Shown here in pieces: positions 1,398 through 24,808 of a stretch of DNA of 24,808 nucleotides. Source of the DNA: a virus (lineage: Duplodnaviria; Caudoviricetes); the IMG/VR virus record IMGVR_UViG_3300036715_000180, positions 1 to 24,808 of that record; one strand, given 5' to 3'. The position numbers and the translations under genes are program-made. The notes under the pieces are model-generated. The model did no database searches. It worked only from the letters and a program-made list of their open reading frames with translations, and was not told the DNA's origin. Position 1 is the first letter of the stretch. The number at the start of each line of letters is the position of its first letter.

Positions 1398-3896
1398 ATG
1401 CTCGATCAACTGGATGAATTAACGCCTGAGCAGCAGCAAGCACAACAGGCGCAGATTGAGCGTCTGGACGCGTTCTCTGACACGATACGCAAGATGCGAA
1501 AAACGGCAATTGATGCTAGAGCGCAAATGGGCATTGAGGATCAGTGGCAAGAAGACGAGGATCATTACGAAGCAATTGATGATGCGACTCGGACTACTTC
1601 AAGCAGATTAAAGCCGTATGATTTTGGTGGAACTGGAACAGGCCCGACTCGCTTACCGGAAAAAACACTGACACGCAGTACGGTATTTGTTCCAATGACG
1701 CGCCCTTATGTCGATATGGCATCGGCACTGATCTCTGATTTGTATCTACCAACAGACGATAGGAATTGGGACGGTGAGCCTACGCCAATTCCAGATTTGA
1801 TCAAGCAAGCAAAAGACATAACGCCATTAGTACAGCAAATGCCAGCCATGCCTTCCATGATGGGACGCATTAAAAGTATATTTGCACCGCAGCCACAACC
1901 AGCTCAACCACTACAACCAGGACATCCGCCAATGCAAGGCGCAGCACCTCAAACAGTAGGCGATGTAGCGCAGCAACAGATAGACGCGGCAAATGACGCA
2001 TGGAAAAAAGCACGGACACAGATTGATGACTGGTTAGTTGACTGCTCCTACAATGCGGAAATGCGCAAAGTCATCAAAGATATGGCGCGTATTGGCACGG
2101 GAATTATGAAGGGGCCATTTCCTAAGTCGAAGTCATCTAAGGCGGTGATCAAGACTGGCGAGGAATATGCAATAGAGATTTCGCAGAAGGTAATTCCCGC
2201 GTCAAAACGCATTGATCCTTGGCGATTCTATCCAGATCCAGCGTGTGGCGAGAACATTAATGATGGTAGCTACGTTTTTGAGCAGGATTTTATTACGCGT
2301 AGCAAGTTACGTGAATTGCGTAAATTAGATCATTATATTGGCTCTCAGATTGACGCTTGCATGGAAGAAGGGCCGGTTAGTGCAACTTCAGGCAATAGAA
2401 AAACTGCATCCGAAAAACGCAGTGATTCAGAGCTATTCGAAGTTTGGTACTTTGAGGGTCAAGTGGAATGGCAGGATCTGGAAGACGCAGGATGTATTGT
2501 CGAGGGCAAGGCAGGTGATGTGTTTCATTCTGTCGTGACAATGGTCAATGACCGCGTGATCAAAGCCGCCTTATCGCATCTTGACTCTGAGGAATTTACT
2601 TACGATATCGTAGTATGGCAGCGTAAATCTGGCTTATGGATTGGCGATGGAGTAGGTCGCCAAGGACGCACAGCACAACGGGGATTAAATGCCGCCGTGC
2701 GTAACCTGATGGATAACGCAGGACGCTCAGCCAGACCGCATACTGTAATCAATCGGTCAGCAATTCAAGCCGGCCCCGATCCTTTTACGTGGTACACAAA
2801 GAACGATGCAGAACTTCAACAAGTCGCGCATGCGATGATGTTCTTCAATGTGCCAAGTATGCAAAATGAACTAATGGGCATAATTCAATATTTCTCAAAG
2901 ATGTTCGAAGATGCTACTGGCCTTCCGATGATGATGCAAGGCCAGCAAGGTGCGGCACCGGAAACAGTCGGCGGTATGCAGTTGCTGATGAATAATGCAT
3001 CTATCGTTCCAAGAGATATCGTTCGTCGTATTGATGATGCGTTGACCGAACCTAGCATTAACCGTTACTACGAATATTTGATGCTACATGGTGAGGATAA
3101 TTCCGCTAAAGGGGATTTTAATATTCATGCGCGCGGATCTAGTGCGTTGATGGAACGGGCAGCACAAGATAAATTCTTGATTCAATTGGTGCAGTTTTCA
3201 GGAAACCCTGCTTTCGGTCTTGATCCTGAAATGCTTATGGAAGAATTACTTAAGTCGGTACGGATCAATCCAAAGAGATTGCAATTGTCTGACGAAAAGA
3301 AAAAAGCCATGGCAAGCCAACCACCGCCAGAAGATCCTCGCATCACAGCAGCTAAGATCATGGCAGCAGCAGGCGTTCAGCGCGTACAGGCACAAGGTCA
3401 GATTGATAGTCAATTGCAGCAAGCTGAGGCAAATTCAGAGTTACAACGCATTGAACAAGAATCGACTCATGAGCAGCAAATGCTTCAGTCTGGCGGATCT
3501 ACTCCTCATATGGCTCAGGCAACAGCAAGGATAGAGCAGGAACGTATCCGCGCCAATACTGCGCAAATGGTTGAGGCTAGTCGATCCCATGCGGAGATGG
3601 CAAGAGCAGATAAAGAAATTCTCATCGCACAGCAAAATGGTGAATACGATTTGCGTAAATTGGAATTGCAGCGCGAGATTGCTTTGCTTGACTATGCGAA
3701 TAAAGAAAAGATTTCAATCAACGATGCAAAAGCAATGTTGGCAAAATCTGCAATGGATAACCAAACCAAGCGCGAACTAGCTTCAGCAGAAGTGCAATTG
3801 GCAAGCAATGAAAACGCCAAGAATCGTGAATTGGATTTGCATAAGCACACCACAAGTTTAGTGCGCGATCAAATGACTAATCCAAATACGCCATGA
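1398..3896 (+). CDS. Portal protein (podovirus P22/N4-type, 832 aa)
   Basis: Size and position before scaffold and capsid. Portal-like motifs: DMARIGTGIMKGP, RIDPWRFYPDP, FEDATGLPMMMQGQQG, ETVGGMQLLMNNA. Long Q/E/A-rich C-terminal coiled coil. Confidence 0.88.
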   Translation: MLDQLDELTPEQQQAQQAQIERLDAFSDTIRKMRKTAIDARAQMGIEDQWQEDEDHYEAIDDATRTTSSRLKPYDFGGTGTGPTRLPEKTLTRSTVFVPMTRPYVDMASALISDLYLPTDDRNWDGEPTPIPDLIKQAKDITPLVQQMPAMPSMMGRIKSIFAPQPQPAQPLQPGHPPMQGAAPQTVGDVAQQQIDAANDAWKKARTQIDDWLVDCSYNAEMRKVIKDMARIGTGIMKGPFPKSKSSKAVIKTGEEYAIEISQKVIPASKRIDPWRFYPDPACGENINDGSYVFEQDFITRSKLRELRKLDHYIGSQIDACMEEGPVSATSGNRKTASEKRSDSELFEVWYFEGQVEWQDLEDAGCIVEGKAGDVFHSVVTMVNDRVIKAALSHLDSEEFTYDIVVWQRKSGLWIGDGVGRQGRTAQRGLNAAVRNLMDNAGRSARPHTVINRSAIQAGPDPFTWYTKNDAELQQVAHAMMFFNVPSMQNELMGIIQYFSKMFEDATGLPMMMQGQQGAAPETVGGMQLLMNNASIVPRDIVRRIDDALTEPSINRYYEYLMLHGEDNSAKGDFNIHARGSSALMERAAQDKFLIQLVQFSGNPAFGLDPEMLMEELLKSVRINPKRLQLSDEKKKAMASQPPPEDPRITAAKIMAAAGVQRVQAQGQIDSQLQQAEANSELQRIEQESTHEQQMLQSGGSTPHMAQATARIEQERIRANTAQMVEASRSHAEMARADKEILIAQQNGEYDLRKLELQREIALLDYANKEKISINDAKAMLAKSAMDNQTKRELASAEVQLASNENAKNRELDLHKHTTSLVRDQMTNPNTP

Positions 3897-5029: not shown

Positions 5030-6085
5030 ATGTCAGTATCAGCATATTCAAATATAACGCAGCGGGTAGGCACCCTGAAAGGTGAGATCTTATCTCACGC
5101 TGCACCAGTCGAGGTTTTATCTTTGGTCGGTACAGATAAAGATAAAGTCATTCCAAAAAACAAATCCAATAACGTCAAGTTTCGTCGTTGGCTGCCTTAC
5201 GGTGGTGTTGATAATCAGTGGATCACTGCATCTAATGTCGCTTCGTTTGCATCAAGTCAAAGTGCGGTAGATGGTGTAACGCCAACTGCAGATACATTGA
5301 CACCAACAGACATCACTGCAACGCTTGTACAGTATCTTGTTCTGTACTGCGTTACAGATCAGATGACCGACATGCACGAAGATGGCGATATCATCCCTGA
5401 TGAAGCTAAGCGTCAAACTGGTCAACGTATGGGCTTGATTGGTGAAATGGTGCGTTACGGTGCTTATAAGGCGGGTACAACTGCTTTCTATAGTGGCGGC
5501 ACAAATCGCAGCACAGTCTCCAACACAGTGACAATCAATGTCTTGCGTAAGGTTGCCAAGACATTGTTAACCAATCATGCACGACCAATTACGCAAGTAT
5601 TAGTTCCATCAACCAACTTTGCCTCGGCACCAATTGAAGCTGCGTTTATTGTGTTCTGTCATACCGACTTAGAACCCGCTATCCGTGACTTGCCAAACTT
5701 CAAGGACATTGCCAACTACGCACAACGTAAGCCAATCCACGATATGGAAATTGGCTCATGCGAGCGTTTCCGTTTTGTCTTGTCCCCTGAGTTGGCTGGC
5801 TATCCTGATTCTGGCGCAGCAATTGGCTCAACAGGCATGATCTCAACTACAGGCACATTGATTGACGTTTATCCAATGATCATGATGGCCGATGAATCTG
5901 TTGGTCAAACACATTTGGGCGGCGTTGAAAATTGGGATGCATGGTACTTGCCGCCTTCACAGCGCGATAAGTCTGATCCAGGTGGACAACGTGGTTATGT
6001 TGGCGCGAAGTGGTACTACACCGCCATTATCCAAAACCAAGGCCGTCTTGCTGTTGTCGAGGCGGGCACACCGTACCTGTCTTAA
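5030..6085 (+). CDS. Major capsid protein, N4-gp56-like family (351 aa)
   Basis: AGGAG SD. Motifs IPKNKSNNVKFRR, GVTP, FCHTDLEPAIRDLPNF, EIGSCERFRFV and DKSDPGGQRGYVGAKW match the N4-gp56 major capsid pattern. Confidence 0.92.
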   Translation: MSVSAYSNITQRVGTLKGEILSHAAPVEVLSLVGTDKDKVIPKNKSNNVKFRRWLPYGGVDNQWITASNVASFASSQSAVDGVTPTADTLTPTDITATLVQYLVLYCVTDQMTDMHEDGDIIPDEAKRQTGQRMGLIGEMVRYGAYKAGTTAFYSGGTNRSTVSNTVTINVLRKVAKTLLTNHARPITQVLVPSTNFASAPIEAAFIVFCHTDLEPAIRDLPNFKDIANYAQRKPIHDMEIGSCERFRFVLSPELAGYPDSGAAIGSTGMISTTGTLIDVYPMIMMADESVGQTHLGGVENWDAWYLPPSQRDKSDPGGQRGYVGAKWYYTAIIQNQGRLAVVEAGTPYLS

Positions 6086-16753: not shown

Positions 16754-17823
16754 TGGGGATTTTCTTAGCGGCACTGGCAGCAGCTGGCGATGCTGGCGTT
16801 CAGTCGATGAATCAGAATATTGATCAGCAGAATCGCTCTGATTTAGAAACTCAACGGTCTGAACTGGCAACGCAGAAGGAGAAAGCGCTGACTGATTACA
16901 ATAATCAGGCAAAGATAAATTATGATAATCAAGTCAGAAAAGCAAGATCGGATGAAGTGAGTGATGGCGCACAAAAACTGGCACAACTACGTGCAGATGT
17001 CGCTAATCAAAATGCACAAGACCAAGGAGACGCCGCAGAGAATGCCTATGCAAACGCACCAGGTCTTTCTGATAGTGATAGGCGTGCTGGCATTATGGCA
17101 TCTCGTCAATACACCAAGGACAATACAACTAGCGGCAAGGCAGTGGCAACGGACGATGATATCCTGCATGCATCCGTCAATGCTGGATATACAAGCCCGA
17201 TGGAATTGCTGGCGATGAAGAAGCAAGATGCCCTTGCTAAATCACAAGCGATGCTAGCGGACATTAAAGAGCGTCATGAAGATAATAATGTTCAAAGGAC
17301 GATTCAGGCTGGAGAGCAAAATGCCAACTGGATGAAAGTTATGATGGCGAGAATTGAAGCGGATAAGTCGTCCAGTTCTGATAGTGAAGATACGGCAGCC
17401 ATCAAAACAGCAAAAGTCATTCAAGCCGATGAGAAAGGTCGAGGCAATGATATTTCTCTCGCGGAAGCAATTGACCGGACGCATAAGGCAGCAGATGCTG
17501 GAAATAACTTTGCGTTAAATTATGCAAAACTTCAATCGGAAGCTGGAATGATTCGACCAGATAAGGGAGATCCAACTAAGCCGGCACCGGGTAAATTATA
17601 TGCAACGGTTGACGATGCAATCGCAGCAGGTCAAAAAGCATTTATCAATCCTAGGGCGACATCAAAGCCAAGTGCCGCACCAAAACCTAGTAATTCCGAT
17701 AGTTCATTAAAAATTGCAAATGGTGTTACTTACGGAGGAAAAACTATATCTTATGATGACGTTCCCGCTGGCGCTACGTTCACCGATCCAAACGGAGTAA
17801 CTAGAATCAAAGGCGGTAAGTAA
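16753..17823 (+). CDS. Putative ejection protein (356 aa)
   Basis: AGGAG SD; short hydrophobic N-terminus, coiled coil, C-terminal YDDVPAGATFTDPNGVTRIK; TAATG-coupled to the giant ORF. Confidence 0.7.
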   Translation: MGIFLAALAAAGDAGVQSMNQNIDQQNRSDLETQRSELATQKEKALTDYNNQAKINYDNQVRKARSDEVSDGAQKLAQLRADVANQNAQDQGDAAENAYANAPGLSDSDRRAGIMASRQYTKDNTTSGKAVATDDDILHASVNAGYTSPMELLAMKKQDALAKSQAMLADIKERHEDNNVQRTIQAGEQNANWMKVMMARIEADKSSSSDSEDTAAIKTAKVIQADEKGRGNDISLAEAIDRTHKAADAGNNFALNYAKLQSEAGMIRPDKGDPTKPAPGKLYATVDDAIAAGQKAFINPRATSKPSAAPKPSNSDSSLKIANGVTYGGKTISYDDVPAGATFTDPNGVTRIKGGK

Positions 17824-20800
17824 TGGCAAATCCTTGGGATAACGATGCTGTAGTCAGTGCGCCTTGGGAAAATGATAAACCTGTAGCGGAATCCAAAGGC
17901 ATCATTGCGTCTGCATGGGATGGCGTGAAGTCTGCTGCAAGCAATGTCGCTGATGGCGTTGCAAGTGACGTGAAGAGTTTATATAGCTCGCCATCTAGCG
18001 TCATGGAAAACCTCGACCAGAAAAATCCAACGCCGTTGAATGAGCAGGGAACATCTAACCCTGCTCTCGGCCCGATGCGTAAGGATTATGTTGATAGCGT
18101 TCGCGCCAAGACATTGCCAGATCAGATCGATCAAGCTAAGACAGATCCGCAAGCGGCCAAGATTGCAGCGCAAACGCTTGCGCGGTCTAAGCAACCTGAT
18201 ACTTTATCGATGACTAATCAGGACATTTCTGACCACGCAGAAAGAATGTTGCATGGTGATGCTGCGCCAACTGATCTGTATGGCAATACTGAAATGCAGA
18301 AGGTTGACGATACCCCATACCAACTGACAAAGGAGGATGTTGATCATTTGATGAAATCTGGCGCCACTCTGGAAATGAGTAGCGGCTCAACGATCAAGGA
18401 TATCACTGCCAACGCAATGGGCGGCCTGTTGACGACCGGCGCGAAGTCTGTCGCCGCATTCAGTGATGCAGTTGGCGCTGATGATATGGCTGCAAAGGCC
18501 GATGCTTATGCCAAGCACGTTAATGAAATCATGCAGGAAAATGGAGGCAGCTCTGTTTCTGGAAAAGCAGCAAGTATTGTTGGTGCGATCACCAGTGTTC
18601 TAGCCTTGCCAGAATTGGCACTTGCTCATGTGGCGGCGAATGCTGGACTGTTTGCGATCCCTGCTTTCCGTGATACGCTAAATGAAAAGCTAGCCGAAGG
18701 TAATAGTTACGGAAATGCATTGTCACATGCTGTTGCTTCGTTTGGCGTAAATATGTTATTGCCAACAGTCGCAACAAAAGGCAGTGGCGCGGCTGCCAAG
18801 TTGTTCGGTGCGGCTGAAAAAGACTCTCTTGGGCAGACTGTCATTACGGCTACTGGCGCAAAGGGCGCAGCGGCACAACTAGGTTCTGCTGCTGCGGAAG
18901 GCGTTGGATTTTCGCTAGCTAGCCATGGCATTGATAAAGGCATTGATTTTGTATCAGGGCAAAAAAATGACTCTCAGTTAGATTCAAAGGATCTATTGGC
19001 AAACGCTATTGCTTTTGTTGCATTGCGAGGTCAACAAGCAAGAAAGCAGTACAATGGCTCTGCACTACATGATCAAATCGCAAATGAAATAAACTCAGTT
19101 AATCTTGCTGATGATTCGCAGTCAGTAGCCTTAAATAGACTCAAGCTAGATCCAAATTCAATTACACCACAAGAAACCGTTAAGCCTTTATTGGCGGCTC
19201 CCCTCGTCAATTCAGTTGCGCCTACAGTTGCCACCGACACACTAAGCAAGCTCAACGCAATCCGTCCATCGCCAGCCGATCAAATGTCATCCCTTCTCAG
19301 TCCAGAACAACGGGCATCGCTAGAGCAGGCAAAGAGCGAAGTCGTAGCAAAGCAAAAAATTGATAGCATCACCAGCGCACCGGATATTGATACGGCGATT
19401 GCAGCGGCGAAAGAAGCGGTCATTGCACCGATAGAGCAAAATACTAATCCAGCAAGAGAAGGCTATACGCCTGCAAGTTGGGTATTGCGTGAGAAAGCTA
19501 CTGGTAAAGTCATTGCTGAAACATTCGATCCTCAGAAAGTGGCCGCGCTTAATACTGACAAATACGAAGCTGTTCCTATCAATGAACATCTTGGAAGTCT
19601 ATCTAGCCACATTGCTGAATCGACTCAGGCGATTGATGCAGCAAAAGCAAAGGCACAAGAAGCCGCTGATCTGGCAGAGCATAATCGCATGGGCGAAGTC
19701 GTCTCACGCGAACAGTTGCCTATCGACAGTCCAATGACAGTCAATAAAAATCAAGTCACGCAAGGTATGCATGATCTCTTTGCGGCACATGATGCGATTA
19801 CCGGAACTAAGACGGTCATCGTTGATAAATTACCTGGGCATGCTGACGGTATGATGGTCGGCAAGGATGGAACAATCTACATTCACAAAGATGCGTCCAT
19901 TAACCCGATTGATGTCTTCAATCATGAAGTGTCGCATGTCACCGATCAAATTCTTGGCGACTCTGCAACGATCAAGCTTGCTGACGATGCAGTAACTTCT
20001 TCGATGACACCAGAAGCAAAAGCCCGTTATGCCATGTATTACCACGGCGGAGAACTTCCTGAAAACATCAAAGGTATTCTGACGACTGAGCAGCTTGCAC
20101 AAGCGGAAAAAGGCAGTCTCACCAAGAAAAATGCAAAAGGTGAATGGGTCAACGACCTGAAATTAACACCTGAACAATCGAATAAGATAGCAGATATTTT
20201 CCACAATAAAGATGGCAAAGGTACGGCTTACATTCAAGAATTACGGGCAGACTTACGCGCTCATGCTGTCAAAGACTCTGGATACTGGAAGACATTCAAA
20301 GATTCCTTGATTCAGCATTTTGGCGAAGAGAAGGCCAATGGAATTTTCACCAATCTGGCGAATGCTTTCAAAGCGACATTGGAGAAATACCAAGAAGCGT
20401 ACAAGAACAAGCCATCATTTGCGATTAAACAATTAGTTAATAATCACCAAGAGATTTACAACGCCATTGCTAAAGCAGATGCCGAGGCAACGAATGTTCG
20501 TGAAGTCGTTAAGGTCAAGGCAGAAAAGAAACAAGCGGAAGCAGCGGCACGCAAAGAATTAATTGATGGCTTGCAAGAAAAAACGAATAAAGAATTACGT
20601 GGTATTGCGGCAAATCATCCTCGCGTCTATTTGAAAAATGCGGCCGCAGAGTTAGTTGCAAAACGTGACGCTGATTTACGCTTGAGTAAGTCGATAGCGG
20701 CAAAAGACCAACTGAAAAAGTCATCTAGCGTCAATCCAAATGTCGATAGCATGGCTGATGCAATTGCGAAACTTGGCGGTATTAATCGCGAAAGTGTGGC

Positions 20801-23800
20801 GCAACGCTTGCAATTATCTCCTGAAGAACTCAATGCAAAGGGGCAAGTCGGCTTCCGTGCGGCACCGTTATTCCACAAGTACGGCATGAATATCGAGCGC
20901 ATGGCAGAACGCCTGGCAGAGCTTGGCTATATCCACATGGACGAAGGCGGCAAGCACGACCAGCACGACTTTGAAGACAAGTTAATGGAAGTAGCAAATG
21001 GGGTTGAAGTTCACACGCCTAATGCTATGATGTTAAGAGCGCAAGCAGAACATGAGCATGCCATGCAGGAAGTTGGCGTGGAGTCGAAGGGTGACTTTGA
21101 ACATGTTGAAGATCGCGGTGATGCTGTTCAAGATGCCGTAGAGGGTAAACGCGATCCATTGGATGATAGCGATATTGCTTTCTTTGATCATGAGATCGAA
21201 AATAAAACTACCGCGCAAAATATGCGTGATCTTGGCTTTAGTGAAGAGGAAATTAAGAATGAACTTGCCAGAGAAGAAGAATCCAACGCCAGAAGAGAAG
21301 CGGAAATTTCTCATTCTGATGAGGGAATTTCACAAGATACCACCGGAAGAACGGGTGATGGTAGCGAAAGAGATGAAGCGCCGTATTCTCTCCAAGGCGA
21401 AAGCGCAGACGAAGCCAACGCAAGGCTAGAGAAAGAAGACCGTCAAGCCTACGAAGACCGTCAATCCGAGCAGGAACAGCATAACCGCGCCCAAGCTGAT
21501 AAGGAAGTTGGTAACTTCGGATTGACTGGCAGCGACCGTTCGGCAGATCGCAACGATGGTCAGAATAATTTGTTCAGCCCGAAGCGCGAAGATTACAAAT
21601 GGGAGACTGTCACTGAGACTGAAAATGGACCAGAGTTTAGCAATAAGCATTTTCTCTTACTGCCTACGCATGTGGACAATACATTCGATGCGAAATGGTT
21701 TCTTGGTGGTCGAGAGTATGCAGAAAGTAATGCGCATCACTATTGGGTATTTGATAAAAATAATCAAAAAGTCGCTAATCTTTCCCTTGAAATTGCGCAT
21801 GGCAAGATAGAAAAATTGCTTTCTATTGAGGTTGAGCCTACACTGAAAGGCAAGGGAATCGGCCGTGATGTTGTTGGCTCATTGTTAGCAAATGACAATT
21901 ATCTTCCTGATCATGCGGGGCAAGGCACTGGCTATGATGATTTACTGGCAAGTACCGATAAATATTTAAAAGTCTTCGATATCTTGAAGCAAAGTGAACC
22001 ATTCTGGAAAAAGGTAGGGGCAGATGAACTCAACGCAGACAATAACGGACAAACCAACTGGTCAAGTTTTGAGCGAGGACAGGCACGCAGAGAGGATGCG
22101 CCGCGCCAGGGAGGGATCGGAGAAGGCAATGCAGAGTCCGGCGAACCAGGAACGATTAAGTCAGGCCCTCGCCCGGATGCGTCAGGTTCAGAAAACGAAG
22201 TAAAGTATTCGCCTAAGCGCGAAGAAACATGGCACTACAGCCAACTATCAAAATCCATCGAAGAAGCGCCTGATCGCGTCTTTGGTGCGCCTAAACAAGT
22301 CGCAATGTGGCTGGACTCTAACGCTGGCAAGCTAGGCGTTAAGAAGGACGAAATACAGTGGACGGGTGTTACCGACTGGCTCAACATGCAAACCGGAAAA
22401 GTATCTAAGGCTGATGTCTTGGATTACTTGCGTTCTGGCGGTGTGCAGGTTCATGAGGTAATGAAGGGCGAGGATCAATATAGATATTTTGTAAAAGATA
22501 TGCAGAAGAAGTATGGTGATTCTTGGGTTGGCGATTTGTCCGATGCTGAAAAGAAAAAGAAAGAAGATTTTTTCAATTCAAGCAATGAGTTGGGTCAAAC
22601 AAAATATGAACAATATCAATTACCAGGTGGTGATAACTATCGTGAGTTATTGCTGACATTACCTAAAAATCAGGTATTGCCAGAAGGTTATTCCGTCATA
22701 GACAATCCAAGTTCAGCGCAAAATGCAAGAAAATTTATTGTCATTGATGGAGATAATAATAGGCTTGGAAGCGGCAATACAAAAGAAGAGGCTTTGCAAA
22801 CTTATTTTAATCATCATCAATCTGGTGATATGTATAAGTCCACCCATTGGGATGAAAAAAACATTCTCGCGCATATCCGATTTAATGACCGTACAGATAC
22901 CGAAGGCAATAAGGTTCTCTTTATAGAAGAATTGCAATCGGATTGGGGACAAGAGGGCTTGAAGAAGGGATTTAATTCACCAGATGATTACGAAAAAACA
23001 TTAGCCGATTTAAAAGCTAGATACCATGCAGCACCAGATGATAGTCCGCAACAAGACTCATTGCGTCGTCAGCTTGAAGACATGGTTTTATCCGATAATA
23101 AGAAAGGCGTACCATCTGCCCCATTCGTCACTAAAACAGAATCATGGCTACAGCTAGGCATCAAGCGCATGACAGCTTATGCCGTTGAACATGGCTATGA
23201 TAAGGTGGCTTTTGTGAATGGTGAGCAGTCTTCTAGCCGGTATGACCTGACAAAGCACATTGACGAAATCAGTTACCTGAAAAAACCAGATGGAAGTATT
23301 GCCACAATATCAGCAACAAAAGACGGATCATTTGTCTTTGATAAGCACAATATTGATATGGATGAAGTCGAGGCAACATTTGGAAAAGAGATTGCTAAAA
23401 AGATTGAATCAAGCGAGGGGCATAGCGATAATCGAGGACGTAAAGTTTTAGAAGGCGTTGATCTCAAAGTCGGCGGCGAAGGAATGAAAACCTTCTACGA
23501 TAAAATCGTTCCTCAGAATATCAATGATGCCTTAAAGAAGATTGGCGGCGGCCGGGTTGAGGGCGTGGATATTGGCGTTCCAAATGAGATTAAGTATTCT
23601 GTTGAAGAATATCGCGGTCCGACTGCGACACTTGAGCAAGTCAAACTTGTTCTTGATGTAGCTTCCAAGCCTGGCTCCGTATGGGAAAGCCCGATAACAG
23701 GTGAGCGCCAAGATGGCGTAGTCTCTCGTATTGCCAATGAAAATCCTTTAAAGAGAATAGTCAAGTCAATGGAAAATGGATCTTCATTTGAAGATGCAAT

Positions 23801-24808
23801 GGCAGAATTTCCATCTGATAGCGTGGCTAAAATCTTTGGTGGTAAGCTAATTGATGCAACTCCACCTCCTAAAATTGAAACATCATCGCAAAACGGCTTC
23901 ACAATAACCGACGCAATGCGTGACAAGGTAAGTCAAGGCTTGCCTTTGTTCTCACCAAAACGCCAAACAGAAACGCCAGAGTTTAAAAAGTGGTTTGGCG
24001 ATTCAAAAGTCGTTGACGATGAGGGTAAGCCGCTTGTTGTTTATCATGGGACTGGCGAAAACTTTAACGAGTTTAGCCTTGACAAGATGGGGTCATTTTC
24101 TAATGCTGATTCTGCCAAAGGCGGGTTTTTCTTTACAGACAGCAAGCCGCTTGCAGAGCAATTCAAGCAAGAGGCACAACGTAAAAATTTGAATTATGGC
24201 GATATTCGAAAAAAACTAAACAATCTTGATGATGCTGAATTTAAAAATCTAGCTACAGATGCGGGCCTAAAATTAGACCTGGAGATAGAAGGTAAGGAAT
24301 TTGTCATTGATAGCATGATAGATCGACTTGAACGAGATAACGATACATCTTTTATTGATGATAGAACTAATATTGATAGAGATATAAAACGATATATTGG
24401 GAAAGATGCTTTTGAGAAGGGAAATGTTGTTAATGCTTATTTGAGTATTAACAATCCAATGGAAGTTGTTGTTGATAGTGGATCTGAATTTGACGAGGAC
24501 TTGATAAATTCATCTATTAAAAAAGCGAAACTAGGCGGCTATGATGGGTTAGTCATTAAAGGTATGCTTGATTCTGCTGCTTCGGATGATCGCGGCAATA
24601 ATCAGATAAGTTCAAATGTTTATATTGCATTTACGCCTACCCAAATAAAATCCGCTACAGGTGAGAATAGGAAATTCGACGCAAGCAATCCTGATATTCG
24701 GTTCAGCCCAAGACGCGATATGCCAGATGTCATCATTGGCAACCCGCTAGGTGAACTGGCAAATCATGCCGAATATGAAAAGGCAAAGGCTGGAGATACA
24801 ATTTCCGC
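17823..24808 (+). CDS. Giant polyvalent ejection-type protein, at least 2,328 aa, 3'-truncated (zincin, GNAT, unassigned domain, ART-PolyVal-like, further domain)
   Basis: ATG at 17823 overlaps the upstream TAA. Manual translation (MANPWDNDAVVSAPWEND...) shows no in-frame stop to the window end. Motifs: HEVSH 19923-19937, KGKGIG 21846-21863, FWKKVG 22002-22019, IEELQSDW 22923-22946, YHGT 24042-24053. Confidence 0.92.
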   Translation, partial: MANPWDNDAVVSAPWENDKPVAESKGIIASAWDGVKSAASNVADGVASDVKSLYSSPSSVMENLDQKNPTPLNEQGTSNPALGPMRKDYVDSVRAKTLPDQIDQAKTDPQAAKIAAQTLARSKQPDTLSMTNQDISDHAERMLHGDAAPTDLYGNTEMQKVDDTPYQLTKEDVDHLMKSGATLEMSSGSTIKDITANAMGGLLTTGAKSVAAFSDAVGADDMAAKADAYAKHVNEIMQENGGSSVSGKAASIVGAITSVLALPELALAHVAANAGLFAIPAFRDTLNEKLAEGNSYGNALSHAVASFGVNMLLPTVATKGSGAAAKLFGAAEKDSLGQTVITATGAKGAAAQLGSAAAEGVGFSLASHGIDKGIDFVSGQKNDSQLDSKDLLANAIAFVALRGQQARKQYNGSALHDQIANEINSVNLADDSQSVALNRLKLDPNSITPQETVKPLLAAPLVNSVAPTVATDTLSKLNAIRPSPADQMSSLLSPEQRASLEQAKSEVVAKQKIDSITSAPDIDTAIAAAKEAVIAPIEQNTNPAREGYTPASWVLREKATGKVIAETFDPQKVAALNTDKYEAVPINEHLGSLSSHIAESTQAIDAAKAKAQEAADLAEHNRMGEVVSREQLPIDSPMTVNKNQVTQGMHDLFAAHDAITGTKTVIVDKLPGHADGMMVGKDGTIYIHKDASINPIDVFNHEVSHVTDQILGDSATIKLADDAVTSSMTPEAKARYAMYYHGGELPENIKGILTTEQLAQAEKGSLTKKNAKGEWVNDLKLTPEQSNKIADIFHNKDGKGTAYIQELRADLRAHAVKDSGYWKTFKDSLIQHFGEEKANGIFTNLANAFKATLEKYQEAYKNKPSFAIKQLVNNHQEIYNAIAKADAEATNVREVVKVKAEKKQAEAAARKELIDGLQEKTNKELRGIAANHPRVYLKNAAAELVAKRDADLRLSKSIAAKDQLKKSSSVNPNVDSMADAIAKLGGINRESVAQRLQLSPEELNAKGQVGFRAAPLFHKYGMNIERMAERLAELGYIHMDEGGKHDQHDFEDKLMEVANGVEVHTPNAMMLRAQAEHEHAMQEVGVESKGDFEHVEDRGDAVQDAVEGKRDPLDDSDIAFFDHEIENKTTAQNMRDLGFSEEEIKNELAREEESNARREAEISHSDEGISQDTTGRTGDGSERDEAPYSLQGESADEANARLEKEDRQAYEDRQSEQEQHNRAQADKEVGNFGLTGSDRSADRNDGQNNLFSPKREDYKWETVTETENGPEFSNKHFLLLPTHVDNTFDAKWFLGGREYAESNAHHYWVFDKNNQKVANLSLEIAHGKIEKLLSIEVEPTLKGKGIGRDVVGSLLANDNYLPDHAGQGTGYDDLLASTDKYLKVFDILKQSEPFWKKVGADELNADNNGQTNWSSFERGQARREDAPRQGGIGEGNAESGEPGTIKSGPRPDASGSENEVKYSPKREETWHYSQLSKSIEEAPDRVFGAPKQVAMWLDSNAGKLGVKKDEIQWTGVTDWLNMQTGKVSKADVLDYLRSGGVQVHEVMKGEDQYRYFVKDMQKKYGDSWVGDLSDAEKKKKEDFFNSSNELGQTKYEQYQLPGGDNYRELLLTLPKNQVLPEGYSVIDNPSSAQNARKFIVIDGDNNRLGSGNTKEEALQTYFNHHQSGDMYKSTHWDEKNILAHIRFNDRTDTEGNKVLFIEELQSDWGQEGLKKGFNSPDDYEKTLADLKARYHAAPDDSPQQDSLRRQLEDMVLSDNKKGVPSAPFVTKTESWLQLGIKRMTAYAVEHGYDKVAFVNGEQSSSRYDLTKHIDEISYLKKPDGSIATISATKDGSFVFDKHNIDMDEVEATFGKEIAKKIESSEGHSDNRGRKVLEGVDLKVGGEGMKTFYDKIVPQNINDALKKIGGGRVEGVDIGVPNEIKYSVEEYRGPTATLEQVKLVLDVASKPGSVWESPITGERQDGVVSRIANENPLKRIVKSMENGSSFEDAMAEFPSDSVAKIFGGKLIDATPPPKIETSSQNGFTITDAMRDKVSQGLPLFSPKRQTETPEFKKWFGDSKVVDDEGKPLVVYHGTGENFNEFSLDKMGSFSNADSAKGGFFFTDSKPLAEQFKQEAQRKNLNYGDIRKKLNNLDDAEFKNLATDAGLKLDLEIEGKEFVIDSMIDRLERDNDTSFIDDRTNIDRDIKRYIGKDAFEKGNVVNAYLSINNPMEVVVDSGSEFDEDLINSSIKKAKLGGYDGLVIKGMLDSAASDDRGNNQISSNVYIAFTPTQIKSATGENRKFDASNPDIRFSPRRDMPDVIIGNPLGELANHAEYEKAKAGDTIS
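21259..21429 (+). CDS. Putative nested small protein (56 aa) in +1 frame of the giant ORF
   Basis: GAGGA at 21246-21250, 8 nt before ATG. Reads MNLPEKKNPTPEEKRKFLILMREFHKIPPEERVMVAKEMKRRILSKAKAQTKPTQG. The main frame here is a low-complexity linker. Confidence 0.5.
   Translation: MNLPEKKNPTPEEKRKFLILMREFHKIPPEERVMVAKEMKRRILSKAKAQTKPTQG
21573..24716 (+). repeat. Dispersed (F/Y)SP(K/R)R junction motif, 4 copies
   Basis: FSPKR 21573-21587, YSPKR 22206-22220, FSPKR 23949-23963, FSPRR 24702-24716, all in the giant ORF frame. Confidence 0.85.
22024..22203 (+). CDS. Putative nested small protein (59 aa) in +1 frame, directly after the GNAT core
   Basis: AAGGTAGGGG at 22011-22020 before ATG. Reads MNSTQTITDKPTGQVLSEDRHAERMRRAREGSEKAMQSPANQERLSQALARMRQVQKTK. 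The stop lies 2 nt before the YSPKR junction codons. Confidence 0.5.
   Translation: MNSTQTITDKPTGQVLSEDRHAERMRRAREGSEKAMQSPANQERLSQALARMRQVQKTK

Follow-up and report, generated by a model that had tools for sequence, protein, structure and literature searches.

The 56-residue open reading frame at 21259..21429, here called ORF A, is very probably a real and so far unannotated nested gene with predicted expression, lying in the +1 frame of a giant phage gene, wholly inside it, and having its own Shine-Dalgarno (SD) sequence and start codon. The window analysed is the whole stretch of 24,808 nt, and the argument that ORF A exceeds chance comes from its homologues and strain variants rather than from features of the window. 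In this sense, the original prediction of a real overprinted gene has gained strong support, albeit not from the SD sequence and the amphipathic pattern to which it had pointed. Judged by sequence, the product belongs to a divergent class of helix-proline-helix hairpins. The account that we favor as a whole, namely that of a real nested gene translated from its own SD, whose product would dock on and mask an acidic tract of the giant protein, is put forward tentatively, at somewhat less than even confidence.

The giant gene and its nested frame

The contig carries a podophage-type head-tail module, as given by PHROG matches, including a portal/connector gene (1398-3896) and a major capsid gene (5030-6085); these and all other features discussed here lie on the + strand. 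The giant gene (17823..24806) is placed at the end of this module, encodes at least 2328 amino acids and leaves the contig with its 3' end open. In a Pfam search it matches the ADP-ribosyltransferase domain ART-PolyVal (PF18760, E=6e-15, best stretch 24015..24188), while its homologues bear LPD and ART families, and for these reasons we take it to encode a phage polyvalent protein, i.e., a large multidomain protein with conflict domains in a virion module. The ART-PolyVal domain, a GNAT-like cassette sitting beside it and the head-tail context all resemble what is described for such proteins in the main text of Iyer et al. 2017 (PMC5512222). Polyvalent proteins are thought, in the same text, to be packaged and injected, and gp47 of phi24B is described as a packaged ejection protein (10.64898/2026.04.10.717836). 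By analogy, the giant protein is likely packaged into the virion and ejected from it into the cell.

Upstream of ORF A, an alignment of homologues delimits a domain with the pattern AIAKLGG...ELGY...DExGKxD, followed by a long helix (20742..21092), which we call the LGG domain. Its structure model has a pLDDT of 82, and it has no Pfam match, no Foldseek match at E<=0.001 and none in the Atlas, while a fold search gave nothing clear (the top hit was VIA, with Z 3.4, rmsd 3.9 and 65 aligned residues) and a single-sequence scan for the region confirmed nothing. LPD22-type cores (L001, L006, L008, L012 and L015) contain an LGG domain as well, and there it leads directly into a folded region without a linker; these relatives, inspected by eye, were rejected as an argument, and in L008 the folded region carries repeated +1 stops. 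In the window, the domain gives way to an acidic tract (21048..21257, net charge -15 in 70 aa), the putative docking site, which ends in the helix motif MRDLGFSEEEI, and it is this motif that encodes the SD of ORF A. Downstream of the tract, the main frame overlapped by ORF A is rich in D, E, G, R and S, with a net charge of -10 over 56 aa. It is followed by a conserved segment, GES..EA.AR...FGLTGSDRSAD...GQNNLFS (21426..21587), which served as the anchor for collecting homologues, and whose GQxxLF ending (21564-21578 and homologues) resembles the beta-clamp-binding motif QL[SD]LF. Next comes the exchangeable GNAT-like cassette with its KGKGIG motif (21603..22073), for which the only PDB match is weak (YjdJ, E=0.82) and a search for homologue DNA found none. 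Several cassettes of the giant protein end in a recurring (L/K/R)(F/Y)SPKR/SPRR motif (at aa ~1251, 1463, 2056 and 2294), possibly a processing or recombination boundary.

ORF A itself starts at the ATG at 21259 and ends at the TAG at 21427-21429, with the SD sequence GAGGA (21246..21250) 8 nt before the start and a predicted pairing energy of -6.0 kcal/mol, which falls among the values found at the sites of the main genes. The original prediction had described this arrangement, a main frame reading as an E/D/G/R/S linker and a position after the AIAKLGGI...MAERLAELGY domain and before the GNAT cassette, here called GNAT-like, and on all these points it holds. The product (MNLPEKK...KPTQG) has no Cys and no hydrophobic signal, and AlphaFold predicts helices at 11-25 and 29-49, separated by a proline kink, with a pLDDT of about 90. 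The +1 frame is free of stops from 21142 on, upstream of the ATG, and another ATG in the same frame at 21163, which has no SD, would give a product of 88 aa.

How much of this would be expected by chance? With the main-frame residues kept fixed and synonymous codons redrawn, an ATG appears at the position with P=0.76, the frame is open with P=0.59, and an ATG, an open frame and an SD of equal strength coincide with P=0.23. Namely, the residues E-E-E-I-K-N-E readily spell GAGGA...ATG, which makes the SD-ATG pair in this window unremarkable. The same is true of the basic, amphipathic product that was originally emphasized: it is predicted to be helical and has a net charge of +8, but the redraws give +10.1 on average, and its helical moment is equalled by 411 of 2000 redraws. 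The basic charge is thus a by-product of the reading frame, and we have dropped both charge and helical moment as arguments for ORF A. Taken by itself, then, the window shows nothing beyond chance in its SD, start codon, open frame, charge or amphipathy. What does stand above the redraws is the number of D and E residues, with 7 vs 3.0 expected, a value reached in 43 of 3000. A promoter scan showed no excess (15 sites vs 13.0±4.3 in shuffles), and the one predicted promoter upstream of ORF A (21004-21031) carries no weight as evidence. A search for RNA data sets holding the sequence listed none, a result that does not bear on expression either way. A second nested +1 ORF of 59 aa, ORF B (22024..22203), is a candidate gene in the linker after the GNAT-like cassette; its SD is among the strongest off-frame SDs of the giant gene and the combination of ATG, open frame and SD has P=0.02 under the codon redraw, while a search for homologue DNA returned none.

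Homologous loci and strain variants

Alignment of the LGG domain retrieved 14 viral loci, and those with an acidic linker (e.g., L002, L013 and L136) have helical +1 ORFs at the matching place. A second set, collected by the downstream motif FxLTGSDRxAD, comprised 119 viral loci (39 of them with short flanks) and 77 genomic ones. Two metagenome scans added one locus, from the second, with no confirmed locus in the first, and a search of cultured phage for the downstream motif gave nothing useful (two matches at E=9). From 205 motif loci, 131 had at least 300 upstream codons; removal of redundancy reduced these to 99, and 9 further loci were discarded to give a set of 90. A nested ORF was called if a +1 ATG with an SD of -4 kcal/mol or stronger opened at least 35 codons at the position of ORF A. 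Such an ORF is present in 56 of the 90 loci, as compared to 23.6±3.6 under redrawing and a maximum of 33 in 200 redraws, whereas the +2 frame yields 0 of 90 and shifted anchors yield between 5 and 17 of 81-90 loci. Under a stricter null, the excess holds both for loci with the LGG domain (32/39 vs 14.3±2.6) and for the remaining ones (24/51 vs 8.8±2.3). What is more, wherever the motif LGF[ST]xxEIx[ND] occurs, the window included, the main frame uses the codon that makes the ATG (9 of 9 sites, with 3.3±1.4 expected). Stops in the +1 frame are only modestly depleted, with 4 vs 11.1, 8 vs 9.6 and 7 vs 6.0 observed vs expected in three successive 10-codon bins.

Selection on the nested frame can be read from 17 pairs of related loci in which both members have a called ORF. 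Inside the nested ORFs, changes fall on main-frame positions 1, 2 and 3 in the numbers 167, 135 and 128, as opposed to 206, 155 and 684 upstream and 144, 143 and 369 downstream. In other words, the main-frame wobble share drops to 128/430 inside the nested ORFs from 684/1045 upstream and 369/656 downstream. The pattern points to purifying selection on the nested frame, albeit with two caveats: no more than 11 of the 17 pairs show higher conservation of the nested protein than of the main frame, and the variant discussed next is a low-depth one with a main-frame stop.

Contigs from other runs, aligned to the window, provide a further view. X3 and X4 share a variant, with low depths of 4.5 and 2, for which 15 changes are listed within ORF A. 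Of these, 11 lie at third positions of ORF A (p=0.002); 10 of the 13 ORF A codons hit are silent, and the main frame is altered non-silently in 12 of 14. In the rest of the variant, 21 changes were scored, 12 of them at main-frame wobble positions. A main-frame TGA at 21291, inside ORF A, leaves ORF A intact, and the main frame appears to be dead in this lineage. Consequently, the bias is evidence of selection on ORF A but not of two functioning frames in competition. The variant is unlike the window before 21205, and after 21420 its +1 frame continues as EEEKQKFLLK, resembling the first helix of ORF A; a search of viral contigs did not find this run-on sequence. In X2, the acidic tract is replaced right up to the SD (21033-21255) while ORF A has no listed difference, and in X4 the core of ORF A (21287-21393) is swapped for a diverged stretch of the same length. 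An unchanged ORF A beside a heavily diverged tract counts against tight co-evolution of the two.

Could ORF A nevertheless be a frame open by chance, given that E/D-rich linkers yield GAGGA, a following ATG and stop-free basic +1 frames unaided? The redraw probability for the window, with charge and amphipathy inside the null, and the modest stop deficit speak for it, yet the family excess lies far over both nulls, the wobble pattern is reversed, the ATG is kept at all motif sites and, as described below, a class profile finds matches outside its training set. We consider chance quite improbable. About as improbable, by the smallest of shades less so, is that the +1 frame is entered by programmed frameshifting, giving the giant protein an alternative C-terminus and a shortened form, or is translated only to tune the main frame. 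The open stretch ahead of the ATG would suit such a reading, but the ATG is preserved at all motif sites, several homologues (L042, L044, L080 and L093) have a +1 stop 1-7 codons before the nested start, and the class is conserved at the protein level.

The helix-proline-helix class and its possible partner

The class was defined from 24 nested peptides, hand-picked by the pattern helix-[LIF][PST]P..R-helix, and its members share 10-32% identity with ORF A. When ORF A is left out of the training, the resulting profile gives it 8.5 bits; 11 of 2000 redraws score as high, as do 7 of 2000 shuffles. In the same leave-one-out test, 21 of the 24 members pass and three fail. When run against 2838 off-frame segments, the full profile picked up three members on which it had not been trained, L085 (E=4e-6), L050 and L067 (E=0.12), each with an SD and a start codon. 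A further hairpin-class locus, L142, belongs to a Comamonas prophage. Searches for relatives of the ORF A protein at near or longer lengths, in viral contigs and in the Atlas gave no match, and none of the Pfam, PHROG or PDB families was significant. In particular, DUF3106 was rejected, since its 14.4 bits (E=0.055) fall under the Pfam cut-off of 24.3, with weak matches in 3 of the 24 class members. A fold search returned generic two-helix matches, headed by NblA (Z 6.0, rmsd 2.5, 50 aligned). Two further nested families were seen, one with the pattern M..qarKiW.SPQGVsLl..ml behind ddrB-ParB-type regions (L035, L040, L055, L082, L083, L178 and L211, six of the seven with a PF18763 match), and another, tp.daW..rM..St.Tp.eK..atk.l.kL.k.r, behind LGG domains (L004, L005, L011 and L014).

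What does the hairpin class accompany? At all 22 of its loci, the 60 residues before the called start have a net charge between -4 and -17, in most cases of -8 or below. Regions of the ddrB-ParB type, behind which the tracts are neutral and other nested families are found, precede none of the 22. Over 27 loci, similarity of the nested proteins correlates with that of the acidic tracts (rho 0.23, p 0.001), a correlation confounded by adjacency and by the SD itself lying within the tract, and it does so neither with similarity of the LGG core (rho 0.03) nor with that of the downstream motif (rho 0.06). Net charge shows no such relation between nested ORF and tract (rho -0.05). The LGG core is present in 15 hairpin loci and absent from 7, and the class thus does not strictly follow it. 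In L085, L050 and L067, linker and motif are separated by other sequence, and the hairpin is found with the acidic tract there too. Co-folding of ORF A with residues 972-1255 of its host protein, i.e., the giant protein, gave 0.58, as compared to 0.01 for the best control, with contacts agreeing at 25% or more and a partner pLDDT of at least 71. We rate this as a weak pass: the score came without an interface, and of 157 solved complexes, 18 passed with values of 0.60 or below, as did the two mismatched pairs (out of 215) that passed at all, counts that apply roughly to the alignments used here.

With this in mind, the frame, its conservation, the silent-biased changes and the association with acidic tracts lead us to infer the following. 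Ribosomes would initiate at the SD of ORF A on the late message of the giant gene, and a small helix-proline-helix protein would be made alongside the giant protein. The hairpin would then dock on the acidic helical tract just upstream in the giant protein and, once docked, could mask, chaperone or compact it during synthesis and packaging. That the product binds its own host protein at this tract is, going by the models, a tentative proposal with slightly under an even chance, and that it masks or chaperones the tract is possible, though doubtful.

The main rival, which we hold to be somewhat unlikely, is that ORF A is real but merely occupies free coding space, encoding an independent effector that acts on a host or another phage protein, for instance in host takeover or anti-defence. 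Such an effector would be expected to diverge fast, as members of the class do, to be exchanged between strains, like the core in X4, to remain identical next to a diverged tract, as in X2, and to outlive a main-frame stop, as in the X3/X4 variant, and nothing would have to link it to the LGG core or the downstream cassette, neither of which ORF A follows. The association with acidic tracts, kept even where other sequence intervenes, together with the weak co-folding pass, argues against it. A small basic protein that binds or condenses DNA inside the virion would fit a helical, likely late product of net charge +8, yet the frame alone gives a higher charge, acidic residues are enriched rather than depleted, and the class matches no HTH family; we regard it as quite unlikely. 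Least probable by our estimate is an antitoxin-like inhibitor of the downstream GNAT-like cassette, a very remote reading that adjacency recommends. Here, many unrelated cassettes follow the hairpin class, and the window's own is found in none of the other 20 of the 21 loci compared, while in P0003 an ORF-A-like linker comes without a GNAT and in P0004 a GNAT follows a different linker; nor does ORF A show the co-occurrence that marks GNAT toxin-antitoxin pairs. A link to the cassette, as either inhibitor or partner, which the original prediction had entertained, is therefore unsupported, and its broader suggestion of a partner for an adjacent domain survives, weakly, on the upstream acidic side, in the tract association and the co-folding that it had proposed.

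Known parallels and the meaning of nested linkers

Embedded genes of this kind are not new. According to PMC7314908, TraH is an out-of-frame product within traI of the IncP plasmid RP4 that stabilizes the TraI complex. Just as with ORF A, the nested product is small and charged, and the frame around it belongs to a very large multidomain protein that is transferred; the analogy is one of architecture. That said, TraH is acidic and has been tested, whereas ORF A is basic, only 56 aa long and located in a phage virion polyvalent gene, with its binding weakly predicted. Similarly, Rz1 of phage lambda is embedded on the same strand in the +1 frame of Rz, and read-through of a stop is discussed as a route to embedding in PMC6139136. 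Like ORF A, Rz1 is of a type missed by gene callers, and it is a partner of its host-frame protein. However, ORF A has no apparent lipoprotein signal and lies outside a lysis cassette, its host frame being a cytoplasmic-type linker of a protein of >2300 aa. For ORF A itself, the reading as a two-component spanin was rejected, given the lack of Cys and of a hydrophobic signal, and a host frame that is an acidic soluble linker.

For the mode of binding, the best PDB sequence match of the class profile is the N-terminal NRPS docking domain of PaxB (PDB 7B2B/7B2F), which, according to PMC8251938, is a basic, proline-kinked helix pair that binds acidic helices. The two share a basic helix-proline-kink-helix arrangement and the motif LP.aERK.LL, but the match is not significant (E=0.082) and the window has no NRPS, and PaxB is thus an analogy for how ORF A may work only. 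As for nesting within polyvalent genes, a word search of the main text of PMC5512222 turned up no nested partner genes (the words "overlap" and "linker" are absent and "frame" occurs once, in an unrelated sense), and a search over titles and abstract openings, mostly open-access, gave no report of it. While embedded +1 genes such as Rz1 and traH are already known, nesting in polyvalent genes was not found in the literature searched.

One can take this a step further. Polyvalent proteins might be two-gene cassettes, each of a domain and its small cognate binder, fused by reading through the binder, in which case their "disordered linkers" would shadow, in the other frame, concealed genes for docking or immunity whose products keep the injected domains inert until ejection, with ORF A as the binder of the acidic tract. 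The idea is hinted at by the main-frame stop of the X3/X4 variant, with its intact ORF A running into a repeat of the first helix, by the distinct nested family behind ddrB-ParB and by ORF B behind the GNAT-like cassette; we offer it as speculation, and think it rather unlikely to hold in this form.

A single synonymous change in the main frame, AAT to AAC at an Asn codon, can remove the ATG of ORF A while leaving the giant protein unaltered. Phages commonly inject polyvalent proteins as weapons, and the class to which ORF A appears to belong suggests, if our account is true, how their acidic or toxic segments stay harmless and compact during assembly. In that case, many phage and prophage genomes would carry a small-protein family that gene callers overlook, and a low-complexity linker could be the trace that a second gene leaves in the main frame.
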